DNA of 24,313 nt from Candidatus Moraniibacteriota bacterium. GTDB lineage: Bacteria > Patescibacteriota > Minisyncoccia > Moranbacterales > UBA1568. Numbering within the stretch: the first letter of the stretch is position 1; each line of letters starts with the position of its first letter. A model generated the notes under the pieces. That model worked only from the letters and a program-made list of their open reading frames with translations, did not search any database and was not told where the DNA came from. Below, piece after piece: positions 4,729 through 22,604 of the stretch. Both the position numbers and the translations under genes were made by a program. The stretch is taken from the NCBI GenBank assembly GCA_043739895.1, contig JAYUDH010000099.1, forward strand, positions 1-24,313, written 5' to 3'.

Positions 4729-4766
4729 AAAAAATCTCCCTACCAAATGGTGGGGAGATTTTTTTT
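4729..4766. terminator. Bidirectional terminator between the cyclophilin and RND genes
   Basis: AAAAAATCTCCC-TACCA-aa-TGGTG-GGGAGATTTTTT between convergent genes. Confidence 0.85.
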
Positions 4767-7700
4767 AGGGTGTGTGAAAGTTGGCGCGGTAGTCGTCGGT
4801 CAGTGATGCCGGAGCGACTTCCTTTGGGGTAAACCATATCTTGTAGATGACTGGGATGAAGAAGAGTTTAGCGACGCCAGAGAAGGTAAGGCCGGCAATG
4901 ATGGCCCCTCCGAGCCCCTGCCAGATGGGGTCAGAAAGAGTGATTGGGATGAGACCGACGATGGTGGTAAGGGCGGTCAGGAGGATGGGTTCGAGACGAC
5001 TGGCTGCTCCTTCGCTAATAGCCTGGGTGAGCGGCAGGCCGCTGTCCATATTTTTGTTAATCTTGTCGACCATGATGATCGAGTTATTAACGACGATACC
5101 AAAGAGCGCCAGGATACCGATCAGTGCCGGGAAGGAGAGGGGAATACCAAAGAGCGAGAAGAGGATGAATACTCCCGAGATCGCGAGTGGCACCACCATA
5201 AGTACGATGAGCGCTTTGCGGAAGGAATTGAATTGAACCGCCATCGTGCCAAAGATGAGGATGGCTGAGAGGAGCATAGCCTTGAGTATCGACTGGACGG
5301 ATTTATTGTTCTCATCATTCACTCCACCGGTTTTCCAGCTGTAGCCTGTTGGTAAGTCGAGGGTGCCAGCAAATTTTTCGAGTTGAGCATTTATGGTACT
5401 GACAGAATAATCAGCCGAGACACCAGCAGAGATAGAGAGGGTGCGTTTGCCATCTTCACGGGTGACGAGTGTTGGATTGGGGGCAAGCGAAAGGTCGCCC
5501 AGGGATGAGAGTGGCAGGGAGCCCTTTCCGGTAGGAACCGCAATGAGCCCTAGGATTTCCGGATGCTCGAGTGCGGATGCTTCTCCTAAGCGAAGGATGA
5601 TATCGTAGGTATCATTTTTCAATCGGGCATCGTTTTTGATGGTATAGCCACTGCCTAAGGTGCGGAGGAGGAAGGCGGTATCATTGATCCCGAGGCCGTT
5701 TTCGGTGAGTTTCTCTTGGTAGGGAGTAAAGACGATTTTACTGGCTCCACTCGTGATAGAGGTAGAAACGTTAGTAATACCCGGCTCTGCTTTCAGATAC
5801 TCGCTTACTTTTTTTCCATAATCCTGGAGGGTCGAGAGGTCATCACCCAAGAGTTTGAGTTCGATATCACTCCCAGCAGGTGGGCCACTCGATGCTTGGC
5901 TGGCCACAAAGGTACCCTTGTTGTAGGTGGCATGCTTGGCGTTTATGTTTTTGATGATGTCGGTTGATGAAAGAGGGCGCTCTTTCTCGGGAGTAATGGC
6001 CAGCGTGAAAAGAAGTGAGTTGAAGTCTTTTTTGGTTGCACCGTTGTCGGTCGGGGGTACTGCGCCAATTTCTGCGGTGACGAAACGAGTGTGTTCTGTG
6101 GTACGGAGCTCGTCCAAGAGACGCTTGGCCTCGACAGTGCTTTCTGCCAGTGTAGTGTTTTTGGGGAGTTCAACGCTCACGTAGATAGTCTCCTGATCGC
6201 TTTCAGGAAAGAATTCATTGACGACGTACCCCAATGGGACGAGTGAGTAGGAAAGTACAGAGAAAATAATGAGGGCGGCGACCGTTTTACGTCTGGCACT
6301 TTTGGAGTCGAGGATACCAGCGATGAAGTGTTCATAGCGATGAGCGAGTGGGTCAAAGTTGAACAGCCCATCCCCTGAGAGGGCATGGATTTTTTTGAAG
6401 AATACAGCAAAGTGTGATGCTTCATACTCGGTTACTTTGTTTCGGAGAGCGTGGGATATTTTTCCGATAAGAAACAAGATGAGGGTAGCACCCAAAAAGA
6501 GTAATATCTTGTAGGGGCCGGCAGGGATGAGGATATAGAGGAGGATGCTGAGGCCCGCAAAGAGGAGGGTATAAAACAAGATAATAACCCGACGTGGAAA
6601 TGATCCCTTGAGGAGCATTGCCATGAGCGGGATGACGATGAGGAGCGCGACAGCAGCCGAGATGGCGAGAGATGACGAAACGACGATAGGGATTGGTTTG
6701 ATGAATTCGCCGATGATACCGGAGACCAAGAGGAGCGGAAGAAAGGCCCAGACCGTGGTGATGGTGGTCGTAAATATAACCACGCGGAAGTCACGCCAGA
6801 CGAGGAGAGCCACTTCATCGGGGGTGAACTTTCCAGTGCGTTCGTAGCTCGCCATGGCTGAAATGATGACGATAGCATTGTCGACCAAGATACCGAGCGC
6901 CAAGAGGAGTGAGAAGAGGGCAATAAAGTTGATTGAAATACCCGTGGCACTCATAACGAGGAATGTTCCGAGGAACGTCAGCGGAATAGCGAGTGCGGCA
7001 ATAACTGATTGGCGGAGACCAAAAAAAGTAAAGAGCACGACGAAGACCAAGAGGATAGTGATAGCAAAATCATGAAAGAGTTGGTCGAAGCTTTTTTTGA
7101 TTTCTTTGGCACCATCAAAGACTGGTTCAAAGAGAAACTGTGTGCCGTAGGTGGAGCGGAGTGTTTCTGCGGTAGAAAAAATACCAGCGACGACTTCGGC
7201 TGTATCAGCTGTGTCAGTTTTGAAGACAGAAAAAACAATCCCTCGTTCTGGAGCGGTGGTATGGTCAGCATAAAAACTTTCGGGAGCACTCCGTTTTGGT
7301 TCTGTTTTGAGTGTGACGATGTCACCCAAGGAAACAATGTCTCCCCCAATGGAAAGAGGAAGTGACCTTAGTGTCTGAACGGTGTCACCACTGGTTGACT
7401 GGGTCAATGCAAAAGAAGTCCCTTCGGTACTGAGGTTTCCTGCAGGGTGATTGCCGAGGGCTGACTCGATACTTTGGGCAACGGAAAGGGGACGGAGGTT
7501 TCGTTCAGCGAGGACTTCTGGTTTGAGAATGAGGCTTATTTCTTCTTCTTTTCGATACGAAACAGAGACTTTTTCTACACCAGAAAGATCCTTCAGACGC
7601 TCCTCGAGGAGGTCAGCAAAGCGTGTAAGTGAGGCATTATCGGTATCTCCCGAGAGGATGAAGTTGAGTACTGGTTGATTCTGAAAATCAAGTACCTGTA

Positions 7701-8133
7701 CTGTAGGTGTTTCAGTGTCGGTAGGAAGAGTTGTTACGGTATCAATGGCATTCTCGACATCACGCTTGGCTTTTTCTGGATCGGTACCGGATCCAAATTC
7801 AATGCTCAACGTCGAAATGTTTTCTTGTGAGACAGAGGATGACTTCTGCACACCAGACAATCCACTGACAGCATCTTCGAGGGGAATAGTGACCAGTTGT
7901 TCAATATCTTCTGGACCGGCACCTGGAAACAGTGTCGATACAAAGACGATTGGGATCTGGATGTTTGGGTTGAGTTCTCGTGGGAGAGTAAGAAACGTCG
8001 CGAGACCAGCTCCAGAGAGGGTTAATACCACCAGTACAATAGTACGGATGTTTTTGAAGTAGGAGGCGATGAACGTTTTTTTGAGACTGGGATCAAAGGT
8101 CAAACGATCGAGAAAGGATGATTCTTTTTGCAT
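4765..8133 (-). CDS. RND efflux permease (AcrB/AcrD/AcrF family)
   Basis: 1122 aa with two-fold repeat architecture; motifs GILVDNAIV (TM4), GIVVNNSIIMVD (TM10), RLEPILLTALTT (TM11) and P-x-I-x-x-P after TM1. Confidence 0.93.
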   Translation of the reverse strand: MQKESSFLDRLTFDPSLKKTFIASYFKNIRTIVLVVLTLSGAGLATFLTLPRELNPNIQIPIVFVSTLFPGAGPEDIEQLVTIPLEDAVSGLSGVQKSSSVSQENISTLSIEFGSGTDPEKAKRDVENAIDTVTTLPTDTETPTVQVLDFQNQPVLNFILSGDTDNASLTRFADLLEERLKDLSGVEKVSVSYRKEEEISLILKPEVLAERNLRPLSVAQSIESALGNHPAGNLSTEGTSFALTQSTSGDTVQTLRSLPLSIGGDIVSLGDIVTLKTEPKRSAPESFYADHTTAPERGIVFSVFKTDTADTAEVVAGIFSTAETLRSTYGTQFLFEPVFDGAKEIKKSFDQLFHDFAITILLVFVVLFTFFGLRQSVIAALAIPLTFLGTFLVMSATGISINFIALFSLLLALGILVDNAIVIISAMASYERTGKFTPDEVALLVWRDFRVVIFTTTITTVWAFLPLLLVSGIIGEFIKPIPIVVSSSLAISAAVALLIVIPLMAMLLKGSFPRRVIILFYTLLFAGLSILLYILIPAGPYKILLFLGATLILFLIGKISHALRNKVTEYEASHFAVFFKKIHALSGDGLFNFDPLAHRYEHFIAGILDSKSARRKTVAALIIFSVLSYSLVPLGYVVNEFFPESDQETIYVSVELPKNTTLAESTVEAKRLLDELRTTEHTRFVTAEIGAVPPTDNGATKKDFNSLLFTLAITPEKERPLSSTDIIKNINAKHATYNKGTFVASQASSGPPAGSDIELKLLGDDLSTLQDYGKKVSEYLKAEPGITNVSTSITSGASKIVFTPYQEKLTENGLGINDTAFLLRTLGSGYTIKNDARLKNDTYDIILRLGEASALEHPEILGLIAVPTGKGSLPLSSLGDLSLAPNPTLVTREDGKRTLSISAGVSADYSVSTINAQLEKFAGTLDLPTGYSWKTGGVNDENNKSVQSILKAMLLSAILIFGTMAVQFNSFRKALIVLMVVPLAISGVFILFSLFGIPLSFPALIGILALFGIVVNNSIIMVDKINKNMDSGLPLTQAISEGAASRLEPILLTALTTIVGLIPITLSDPIWQGLGGAIIAGLTFSGVAKLFFIPVIYKIWFTPKEVAPASLTDDYRANFHTP

Positions 8134-8158: not shown

Positions 8159-9301
8159 CTATTGAACAGAAATGCGGTCGCCAGCGATAATCGATCGAGA
8201 TAGGATGACGCGATCAGTTTCTGTGAGGCCGGAAAGAACTTCTGCGTAGCTTCCATAGAGATTACCAACGGTCACAGTTTGAGATATGGCGATATTATCA
8301 CGTTCAATAAGGACAGAGGCTGTGCTTTCGTCTTGGAAGATGGCGTCGATAGGAACGAGAGCCAAAGTATTATTCTGGTGACGAAGCGGTAGGGAGAGTG
8401 TGAGATATTCGCCATTGGTTATTTTTTCGGCCATAGTTTCGGAGAGAGTAAAGAGCACCGAGAATAAACCGTTCTCGTTTTCGCTTTGAGAAAAGTACGT
8501 AGGGAGAAGAGCGATGGTTTTATTTCCAATCATGAGCGTTGTCTCTCTTGTCGGATCAAAGAGGCGGACGGTTTTAGGATCAAGAAAGGCTTCGAGGGTA
8601 GTTGCTCCACGAGGAGTAGATATAGTGGCCAATACTTGCCCGGTAGTAACGAGGTCGCCACGTTTTACTCGAATACTCTCCACCGTACCACTGGCAAAGA
8701 TTTTTGGCTTAAGAACAGCATCGCTGACGTTGGTCAGTTGTGCTGAAAGTCTACTTTGTTCGATGGCACTCTTTCTTGTGGCACGGTCTTTTTTGAGTTG
8801 CGCGAGGGCCAAGTCTTCCTCGGTGTTACTTAAGGTGTTGTCATTCTTTGTCTTTTTTTCTTCAAGAGCGGATATGTCTTTATCTATTTTAGCGAGCTCC
8901 GCTGCGAGACGAGCGCTTTCAGTAGCGATGTTTTTTTGAAGGGTGGTACTACTACTTCCGTAGTCATTGGTGAGCGTGAGCAGCGTTTGTCCAGTAGTAA
9001 CGAGGCGTCCTGGAGACGTCAAAATATTTGAAACAACACCAGGAGCAAGTGCAACAATATTGACGATGCTCTCTTTTTTTACTTTTGCTGGCACGGTGAT
9101 GAAGGCTGTGTCCTTGGCGAGATCAAAGACAGGGGTTTCTTTGGCTTCGGGGGCAGCCGTAGAAATTTCGGCATCCGGAGTACGGAGAAAACTTCCCAGA
9201 GCGATGGTTCCAAAAAGGAGAATAAGCAAAATAATAAAACTCGTTGCTGGTCGTTTGGTAATTTTCTCTATAAAACGTGAAAAAATGCCTGAAATACGCA
9301 T
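8159..9301 (-). CDS. RND periplasmic adaptor (membrane fusion protein)
   Basis: N-terminal TM, two lipoyl half-motifs (PGVVSNILTSPGRLVTTGQTL and SGTVESIRVKRGDLVTTGQVL) around a coiled hairpin, and C-terminal VPIDAI...EVLSGL. Start moved to ATG 9301 because the longer ORF overlaps the promoter. Confidence 0.88.
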   Translation of the reverse strand: MRISGIFSRFIEKITKRPATSFIILLILLFGTIALGSFLRTPDAEISTAAPEAKETPVFDLAKDTAFITVPAKVKKESIVNIVALAPGVVSNILTSPGRLVTTGQTLLTLTNDYGSSSTTLQKNIATESARLAAELAKIDKDISALEEKKTKNDNTLSNTEEDLALAQLKKDRATRKSAIEQSRLSAQLTNVSDAVLKPKIFASGTVESIRVKRGDLVTTGQVLATISTPRGATTLEAFLDPKTVRLFDPTRETTLMIGNKTIALLPTYFSQSENENGLFSVLFTLSETMAEKITNGEYLTLSLPLRHQNNTLALVPIDAIFQDESTASVLIERDNIAISQTVTVGNLYGSYAEVLSGLTETDRVILSRSIIAGDRISVQ

Positions 9302-9337
9302 AAAAAAAGAAAAAAATAAATTACAATGTGAAGAACT

Positions 9338-9366
9338 ATGATAGCGGAAAATTTTTATTTTGTCAA
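9338..9366 (-). promoter_or_regulatory. Sigma70 promoter for the RND operon
   Basis: Minus strand TTGACA (9366-9361), 17-nt spacer, TATCAT (9343-9338). Confidence 0.75.
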
Positions 9367-9398
9367 TCGAGAACACGTAAGAAAAAGGAGAAAAAACA

Positions 9399-9407
9399 TG
9401 ATACAAT
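9399..9407 (+). promoter_or_regulatory. Extended -10 for the protease gene (divergent from the RND promoter)
   Basis: TG-A-TACAAT; the same CATGATACAAT string recurs before the gene at 16188. Confidence 0.5.
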
Positions 9408-21001: not shown

Positions 21002-21034
21002 AATGAGGCCCCGATGAGCATCGGGGCCTCATTT
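21002..21034. terminator. Perfect inverted repeat after the dsbA-like gene (terminator or operator)
   Basis: AATGAGGCCCCGATG-ag-CATCGGGGCCTCATT with 15-bp arms and only a short T tail. Confidence 0.6.
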
Positions 21035-21042
21035 GCTATAAT
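21034..21042 (+). promoter_or_regulatory. Extended -10 promoter for xseAB
   Basis: TG-C-TATAAT, a perfect extended -10. Confidence 0.65.
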
Positions 21043-21101: not shown

Positions 21102-22604
21102 ATGTCGTTATTGAATGAATTGAGGACCTGGCGAAATAATCAGGCACGTATTGAAGGGGTAGAAGGGTACCGAGTTCTATCGAATGCAGTTCTCGAGGCT
21201 TTGGTGGGGAATCTTCCTCAAAACAAAGAAGAGCTCCTGACAATTAAGGGTATTAAGGAAGCAAAATATGCTAAGTACGGAAAGGTTCTTCTCGCGATGA
21301 TGGAACAATCTTCACCAAAGCAGTCGGAAGAGATAGCGATTGAAGAGGTTTCTGTAGAGGAGCAAACACTTTCTGTGAGTCAATTTCTCGATGGCTTAAA
21401 TACCGAGCTCTCAGGAATGGCTGCCCGCATCCAGGGAGAAGTTTCCAGTGTTGATGTCCGTGATCGCGTGGTGTATTTTACTCTAAAGGATAGTCGCGAC
21501 GAAAGCACGCTCAATTGTCTTATTTTTCGCCATCAGTATGATCTTTCTGGTGTTGATCTTATTATCGGTGACGAAATCATTGTTGAAGGGAGTCCAGACA
21601 TTTATAAACCGAGTGGCCGTCTCAGTCTTAAGGTGGGGATGATTGAGTTGTTTGGGGAAGGGGCGCTTAAGAAAGCATATGATGCTCTCAGACAGAAGTT
21701 GGAGGTTGAAGGTCTATTTGCTCCAGAAAAAAAACGTCGGTTGCCGTCATTTCCTGAGCGCATCGCTCTTATTACCTCGGAACAGGGTGCGGCGATCGGA
21801 GATTTTACTATGAATCTTGGTGCCCAGGGACTGAAGGTTCATTTTTATCCAACCAGTGTGGAGGGGAAAAAAGCGGTACCTGAAATTCTACAAGCACTCC
21901 GTTACTTTGATGATCGGGCAGAGCAGTATGATATTCTGGTATTGATCCGCGGAGGAGGGAGTCTCGAAAGTCTCCAGGCTTTCAATAATGAAGTGCTTAT
22001 TCGTCAGGTTGCGAATCTCCGTATACCAACGCTGCTTGGTGTTGGCCATGAGAAAGATGTCACGTTGGCTGCGTTAGTGGCAGATGTTATGGTTTCGACT
22101 CCTACTGCTACTGCCCGGACCCTACGCGAGCCATGGGATGAAGCCAGGGGAGTGCTGCGTCATTTTGAACAACACCTCCCTGTTCTTTTGGAGAGAGAAC
22201 TCTCTGCTGTACGGAGCATGATGACGATACAAGGCGAAGCGCTCCTTATACAGTTGCATCGCGTTCTCGATATGGCTGATCTTTTGAAACAGCGACTCAG
22301 TGAGCGAATAGTGATGTTTCAAGGAGAAGTTCAGCACAGGGTGGCATATCTAGGGCAAGTAAAGAATACGTTGAAACAGTATTTTTTGTCACAGTGCGAA
22401 ACAAAGAAAAAAGAACTGGAATATGCTCTGGATCTCTTGCGACAGTATGATCCTAAACGGGTACTCAAACTCGGATACAGCTTGGTCCAAAGTGAGCAAA
22501 AAATCGTCAAGGATACCCGAGGGTTAAAGGTCGGTGATATACTAGCGATACAGCTCAGTCGAGGGAAAGTCGAGACCCGCATTGAAAAGATTACTGATCA
22601 TTAA
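21102..22604 (+). CDS. xseA: Exodeoxyribonuclease VII large subunit with an N-terminal HRDC domain
   Basis: OB-fold (LSVSQF...IQGEVS...YFTLKD), then RIALITS, GAAIGDF, RGGGS, GHEKD and STPTA. Residues 1-68 match the HRDC pattern. Confidence 0.95.
   Translation: MSLLNELRTWRNNQARIEGVEGYRVLSNAVLEALVGNLPQNKEELLTIKGIKEAKYAKYGKVLLAMMEQSSPKQSEEIAIEEVSVEEQTLSVSQFLDGLNTELSGMAARIQGEVSSVDVRDRVVYFTLKDSRDESTLNCLIFRHQYDLSGVDLIIGDEIIVEGSPDIYKPSGRLSLKVGMIELFGEGALKKAYDALRQKLEVEGLFAPEKKRRLPSFPERIALITSEQGAAIGDFTMNLGAQGLKVHFYPTSVEGKKAVPEILQALRYFDDRAEQYDILVLIRGGGSLESLQAFNNEVLIRQVANLRIPTLLGVGHEKDVTLAALVADVMVSTPTATARTLREPWDEARGVLRHFEQHLPVLLERELSAVRSMMTIQGEALLIQLHRVLDMADLLKQRLSERIVMFQGEVQHRVAYLGQVKNTLKQYFLSQCETKKKELEYALDLLRQYDPKRVLKLGYSLVQSEQKIVKDTRGLKVGDILAIQLSRGKVETRIEKITDH

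Follow-up and report, generated by a model that had tools for sequence, protein, structure and literature searches.

An HRDC domain precedes the OB fold of the exonuclease VII large subunit in a large clade of Patescibacteria

The exonuclease VII (ExoVII) large subunit XseA encoded in the window, a stretch of 24,313 nucleotides from Candidatus Moraniibacteriota bacterium, begins with a genuine HRDC domain, and this HRDC-XseA architecture is a common form of XseA in a large clade of Patescibacteria. We consider it probable that the protein is a functional ExoVII large subunit, in which a RecQ-type HRDC domain of single origin, carried on a flexible acidic linker, provides a second, tethered binding site for single-stranded DNA (ssDNA) or junctions. 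ExoVII is a widespread DNA-repair nuclease, a bidirectional, Mg-independent ssDNA exonuclease. Its substrate selection and access have been given a structural basis only recently, with an autoinhibited XseA4-XseB24 assembly that is opened by DNA. HRDC-XseA is a natural variant of this enzyme with an extra, independently folded and predicted nucleic-acid-binding domain beside the OB fold, and its conservation across much of the candidate phyla radiation makes it a natural test case for how substrates are captured and the enzyme is activated. The architecture also revises the notion that every XseA starts with the OB fold; its practical value is modest.

We assigned the N-terminal domain by profile searches and by structure prediction. 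Residues 3-65 match positions 4-66 of the 68-position HRDC profile PF00570 with an E-value of 5.1e-17 (62 bits, cut-off 23.8; 66 bits in a search of the organism's own genome). The N-terminus also matches the last 66 positions of the NCBIfam RecQ models (40.5 bits versus a cut-off of 640) and, more weakly, the HRDC domain of the RNase D model (E 8e-5). The protein is not itself a RecQ helicase, as the superfamily-2 helicase core and the RecQ-C domain are missing from the xseA product. An AlphaFold2 (AF2) model of the full-length protein, calculated from a 150-row alignment, has a mean pLDDT of 92.6. Residues 1-70 form five helices in this model (pLDDT 92-98), residues 71-90 are disordered (pLDDT 53-61), and an OB barrel, an α/β catalytic domain, a very long helix (residues 334-448) and a small β domain (strands 461-493) are found downstream of the linker. 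A Foldseek search with the full-length model gives only XseA and OB-fold proteins, and the HRDC was thus modeled separately. Folded alone, it is predicted at a pLDDT of 92 with helices at residues 3-18, 22-25, 28-37, 42-46 and 53-70. Its top Foldseek match is the HRDC domain of E. coli RecQ (1wud), with a TM-score of 0.86 and an rmsd of 0.6 Å over 66 columns; TM-scores to other structures are 0.85 for BLM, 0.84 for D. radiodurans RecQ (DrRecQ), 0.82 for RNase D and 0.78 for WRN. Indeed, the profile match and the 1wud superposition bear out the preliminary description, which had placed an HRDC domain at the XseA N-terminus. The peptide it gave is exactly residues 3-67 of the open reading frame, and its interval 21102-21305 corresponds to codons 1-68. 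The acidic linker that it had proposed behind the HRDC is found as well, with 7 of the 23 residues between positions 68 and 90 being acidic.

Table 1. Coordinates of xseA, its domains, the neighboring xseB gene and upstream signals in the window.
Feature	Position	Strand	Basis
xseA (HRDC-linker-OB-catalytic-helical-C-terminal domain), 500 aa, stop included	21102..22604	+	ORF; Pfam, NCBIfam
HRDC, residues 3-65, five-helix bundle	21108..21296	+	PF00570 E 5e-17; AF2; Foldseek
Acidic disordered linker, about residues 68-90	21303..21371	+	pLDDT 53-61
OB-fold DNA-binding domain, residues 91-181	21372..21644	+	PF13742 E 2.4e-14; AF2 β strands
Catalytic domain, about residues 205-345, D234/R283/H316/D319	21714..22136	+	alignment to 8txr
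Long XseB-binding helix (residues 334-448) and β C-terminal domain	22137..22601	+	AF2; PF02601 to residue 492
Putative xseB, small subunit, 66 aa	22615..22815	+	PF02609 at cut-off; position beside xseA
GC-rich hairpin 21005-21030 and TATAAT 21037-21042	21005..21042	+	read from sequence; suggestion only

The HRDC stands ahead of an otherwise complete XseA, again as previously described. The OB fold is recognized by PF13742 (tRNA_anti_2) at residues 91-181 (E 2.4e-14) and forms a β-barrel in the AF2 model, and PF02601 (Exonuc_VII_L) covers residues 205-492 (E 3e-63, 214.5 bits versus 35.9). The xseA equivalog model TIGR00237 scores 302.3 bits against a cut-off of 180, with a match that starts only at residue 107. 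The sequence aligns to E. coli XseA in PDB entry 8txr with an E-value of 9.5e-42, and the full-length model retrieves E. coli ExoVII (8txr) by Foldseek with an E-value of 2e-29. In the 8txr alignment, Asp-234, Arg-283, His-316 and Asp-319 correspond to E. coli Asp-155, Arg-205, His-238 (an alanine in the 8txr mutant) and Asp-241, which are essential for nuclease activity (PMC3439923); the four residues are invariant in 20 relatives. The second aspartate of the RGGG(x)nGHxxDxxxxD motif (Asp-246 in E. coli) is replaced by Ala-324 (codon 22071-22073), and this alanine is invariant in the 20 Moranbacteria relatives aligned. The replacement is probably harmless, because E. coli Asp-246 is not essential and the D246A variant keeps its activity (PMC3439923). 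Judged by these residues, the nuclease core looks intact and the enzyme looks active. The start codon of the downstream reading frame is located 10 nt past the xseA stop, and its product reaches the PF02609 cut-off with 24.0 bits but scores 26.3 bits with TIGR01280, under the cut-off of 35. Low profile scores are usual for the short XseB proteins, and the weak score together with the position suggests that this reading frame is xseB.

We compared this arrangement to the E. coli XseA4-XseB24 complex (8txr; PMC10835039; PMC3439923). Both share the OB fold, the catalytic domain with its four equivalent residues, the long XseB-binding helix, the β C-terminal domain and an adjacent xseB gene. Our protein differs by about 90 extra N-terminal residues, which form the HRDC and the acidic linker, by a shorter helical region and by the alanine in place of Asp-246. 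E. coli XseA begins at the OB fold (8txr; PMC3439923; PMC10835039), in agreement with what the preliminary description had said of characterized XseA proteins. It had also named no characterized example of the fusion, and in the literature searched we found no paper that describes HRDC and ExoVII/XseA as a fusion; the paper reporting the ExoVII structure makes no mention of an HRDC domain (PMC10835039).

An 11-bp hairpin with a GAGC loop lies directly 3' of a DsbA-like gene and closes that gene, a perfect TATAAT read from the sequence is found between this hairpin and xseA, and an AGGA is located 4 nt 5' of the ATG at position 21102. A consensus promoter/terminator scan of the window picked up neither the hairpin nor the TATAAT. 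Together these putative signals are positioned ahead of the ATG at 21102, and the HRDC would therefore be translated as part of XseA. An internal start giving an HRDC-less isoform was considered and rejected, as Met-66 and Met-67 are not conserved. The neighbors of xseA encode a ferric-reductase-like membrane protein, the DsbA-like thioredoxin, a pyruvate:ferredoxin oxidoreductase, transporters and a histidine kinase. No mobile-element or defense context surrounds xseA in the window, which is a housekeeping stretch of a 734-kb genome (129 contigs, 88% complete). Elsewhere in the window, an AcrB-type RND transporter (positions 4765-8133, minus strand, 1121 aa, PF00873 E 2e-157) is adjoined by a HlyD-like adaptor (8159-9406, minus strand); this pair is unusual for a member of the candidate phyla radiation with a reduced genome of 0.7 Mb and presumably a single membrane.

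The fusion turned out to be far from unique. In a search of 5.8 billion proteins, we considered the closest 120 clusters at 90% identity, and all of them combine HRDC, OB fold and ExoVII_L except for four shorter or truncated entries, leaving more than 100 fused clusters. A second search, with residues 1-200 against 1.84 billion representatives at 50% identity, reached down to about 33% identity to the query. Architectures of its best 150 representatives were assigned with purpose-built HMMs for the HRDC, OB and catalytic parts: 107 carry the full HRDC-OB-catalytic architecture and 12 more are N-terminal fragments, giving at least 107 fully fused clusters overall. Source names of the fused proteins are Moranbacteria, Parcubacteria (group), Pacebacteria, Liptonbacteria, Minisyncoccota and Patescibacteria group, and all named fused records but one are from Patescibacteria. 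The remaining one, an HRDC-XseA labeled 'Planctomycetes bacterium' by NCBI (P0402), is 47-53% identical to Parcubacteria-labeled members by BLAST and likely represents a mis-binned contig or a transfer. In an evenly drawn census sample of 401 Patescibacteria genomes, XseA is present in 136 and fused to an HRDC in 11, which come from five families (f1, f14, f17, f63 and f32). Precomputed database annotation already tags HRDC-XseA proteins with both PF00570 and PF02601. HRDC-XseA is thus an architecture variant of a known enzyme, ordinary for its lineage and visible in automatic annotation.

We next asked how strongly the individual domains are constrained. Constraint was gauged by the mean pairwise identity per domain among 103 full-length fused representatives rather than by dN/dS, because the divergence would saturate dS; the closest relatives of our protein are about 62-76% identical at the amino acid level. 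The HRDC averages 39% identity and the OB fold 37%, next to 50% for the catalytic domain, 34% for the C-terminal domain, 13% for the helical region and 9% for the linker. The linker varies in length between 11 and 181 aa (median 26) and is composed of 23% Asp/Glu versus 10% Lys/Arg in the same 103 proteins. Since HRDC identity is close to that of the OB fold and linker identity is only 9%, these comparisons indicate that purifying selection acts on the HRDC as strongly as on the OB fold, as it would on a working domain, and that the linker apparently behaves as a tether.

A maximum likelihood tree of the OB and catalytic core (61 rows) places all fused XseA in one 17-row clade (97/84), which also holds 6 unfused rows and requires at least three changes of state between fused and unfused. 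In a tree of the HRDC domains themselves (49 rows and 74 columns, a short alignment that limits resolution within groups), all 23 HRDCs from XseA group together (97/94), separately from the 20 HRDCs on RecQ and the 6 on Pif1 of this phylum. Taken together, the two trees favor a single fusion within Patescibacteria, followed by secondary loss or transfer, over repeated capture from RecQ. The HRDC-XseA fusion is old. As six unfused XseA are nested in the fused clade, the HRDC appears to be dispensable in some lineages. An unfused XseA of family f4 (L027:942-2282, minus strand, genome G053) is the well-supported sister (100/99) to the fused XseA of f17, has no HRDC by Pfam and about 30 residues ahead of its OB fold; it is a candidate for recent HRDC loss.

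The XseA-borne HRDC is the sole HRDC in its own genome and in every fused genome sampled, 11 in total. The preliminary description had raised the question of whether the RecQ of this genome lacks an HRDC, but there is no RecQ over cut-off at all, neither in this genome nor in the other 10 fused genomes sampled. Five near-complete fused relatives likewise contain a single HRDC, located on XseA, and no RecQ over cut-off. Across the census, 62 of the 401 genomes are HRDC-positive, with exactly one HRDC each, carried by RecQ in about 45, by a PIF1-like helicase in 6 and by XseA in 11. Genome-reduced bacteria thus redistribute one HRDC module among RecQ, Pif1 and XseA, with one copy per genome in our sample. 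The PIF1-like helicases (515-558 aa; L062-L067 in genomes G169, G318, G186, G248, G218 and G370) resemble HRDC-XseA in carrying the sole HRDC of their genome on a DNA-metabolism enzyme, but their HRDC is inserted between the helicase core and a C-terminal Myb/HTH-like tail and belongs to a separate HRDC group. The Pif1 ortholog of our own genome (L068:666-2252) has no HRDC. It is 39% identical to the HRDC-containing Pif1 and keeps the tail, with a Lys-rich low-complexity stretch in place of the HRDC.

RecQ HRDCs (1wud; D. radiodurans 2rhf/2ma1; human BLM 2kv2/4cgz) share with the XseA domain the PF00570 family, the five-helix fold (TM 0.83-0.86), the aromatic residue at the position of E. coli RecQ (EcRecQ) Tyr-555 and the attachment to an enzyme by a flexible linker. 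In XseA, however, the domain is N-terminal rather than C-terminal and sits on a nuclease rather than a helicase, and the 'vPPY' motif of RecQ and Pif1 reads 'vE-x-Y/F' in the XseA-borne group. Tyr-23 falls on the tyrosine of 'NVPPYVVF' in 1wud in an ungapped alignment and thus corresponds to EcRecQ Tyr-555, whose replacement by alanine abolishes ssDNA binding by the EcRecQ HRDC (PMC4464074). Of 122 fused relatives, 119 have Tyr or Phe at this position and one more has Trp; Lys-49 and Lys-55 are near-invariant. The net charge of the HRDC is +2 in our protein, with a family median of +4 and positive values in 90% of its members. The HRDC of BLM and the third HRDC of D. radiodurans RecQ work mainly via protein contacts. 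As these two domains also keep an aromatic residue at the Tyr-555 position, the aromatic residue by itself does not discriminate between the two modes of action. The basic surface and the aromatic residue would support nucleic-acid binding in general and are silent on the class of substrate. The retargeting of ExoVII to forks, adducts or RNA/DNA hybrids that the preliminary description had proposed would go beyond what these features indicate, and the lack of an RNA response in E. coli ExoVII (PMC10835039) speaks against its RNA/hybrid part. Most likely, the HRDC would serve as an accessory module that binds ssDNA or junctions.

In E. coli ExoVII, the OB-fold N-termini of XseA are located in the central head of the autoinhibited XseA4-XseB24 complex (PMC10835039). 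DNA opens this complex into active XseA2-XseB12 halves, and RNA does not (PMC10835039). Based on the Tyr-555, lysine and charge features together with this head geometry and DNA-driven opening, we infer that the HRDCs may form extra ssDNA or junction sites around the head. The HRDC would then provide the enzyme with a second binding site for nucleic acids on a tether, most likely directed at ssDNA or single-strand/double-strand junctions, with two to four such domains surrounding the head of the complex. The tethered HRDCs would raise affinity and avidity for ssDNA tails and hold the enzyme at junctions, and they may possibly lower the DNA threshold for activation or help to trigger opening of the complex. 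The nuclease chemistry itself would be unchanged. As a point against this reading, the basic HRDC may be shielded by the acidic linker next to it. A wider scenario appears distinctly unlikely to us: in RecQ-less Patescibacteria, the HRDC would give ExoVII structure-specific recognition of forks, gaps, D-loops or blocked ends, the nuclease would cover part of the quality control of recombination intermediates or stalled forks that is done elsewhere by RecQ (with RecJ), and the tethered HRDCs would in addition sense DNA and thereby open the autoinhibited XseA/XseB assembly.

A tethered DNA-binding site has to be weighed against a role in protein contacts or regulation. Instead of binding DNA itself, the HRDC would then fold onto the OB/catalytic head or associate with a partner such as SSB, a topoisomerase or a helicase, and in this way control the opening of the tetramer or serve to recruit ExoVII. 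The BLM HRDC indeed packs against the RecA core and influences ATPase activity (PMC4464074), the autoinhibition of E. coli ExoVII stems from its quaternary structure (PMC10835039), and an acidic linker beside a basic domain is typical of self-masking arrangements. We nevertheless regard this interpretation as unlikely, because the HRDC is net basic in 90% of the family and retains the lysines as well as the aromatic residue associated with ssDNA binding, and because a linker of 11-181 aa without a conserved docking motif is hard to square with a fixed intramolecular contact. The absence of RecQ from the fused genomes could alternatively mean that the HRDC was salvaged from a lost RecQ, with ExoVII taking over RecQ-like recognition of forks and recombination intermediates. 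RecQ is found in 0 of 11 fused genomes versus 55 of 390 others, and no HRDC-positive genome in the sample carries more than one HRDC. Under independence, however, an overlap of only about 1.5 genomes is expected, so that the observed zero lacks statistical significance, and relatedness among the genomes violates independence; we thus do not claim that RecQ and HRDC-XseA exclude each other. Most Patescibacteria lack RecQ whether or not their XseA is fused, RecJ and an HRDC-less Pif1 are still present in the fused genomes tested, and the XseA-borne HRDCs stand apart from the RecQ HRDCs of the phylum (97/94) with no sign of recent capture, making a salvage origin decidedly improbable.

A role of the HRDC in targeting ExoVII to RNA or RNA/DNA hybrids is highly improbable in our view. 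RNase D and Rrp6 follow the same logic of a 3'-5' exonuclease with an HRDC accessory domain, their HRDCs superimpose on our model with TM-scores of 0.78-0.82, the domain matches the RNase D model (E 8e-5), and its own genome contains no RNase D-type exonuclease domain over cut-off. These enzymes differ from XseA, however, in having a DEDD exoribonuclease core without homology to the ExoVII catalytic domain, in carrying the HRDC on the C-terminal side and in acting on RNA. The best sequence and structure matches of our domain are the RecQ and BLM HRDCs, the catalytic core is unchanged, and neither a linear RNA oligonucleotide nor tRNA promoted dissociation of the E. coli ExoVII complex (PMC10835039). 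Finally, the fusion could be an artifact, in which an assembly or frame error joined two neighboring genes, or a neutral relic in decay. We found no point in favor of this reading, and it is refuted by the frame, which is unbroken in over 100 independent clusters drawn from many samples, by an HRDC as conserved as the OB fold and by the high-confidence folded model.

A different N-terminal extension of about 115 aa precedes the OB fold in XseA proteins of families f24 and f91 (L051:706-2397, minus strand; L053:722-2467, minus strand; L061:632-2335, plus strand). We considered a cryptic HRDC in this segment and rejected it, as there is no HRDC signal. The extension has no Pfam match over cut-off and gives weak HEAT-like leads (HEAT_2 E 0.0046; Atlas score 0.86). 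In Patescibacteria, the N-terminus of XseA seems to have gained additional domains repeatedly.
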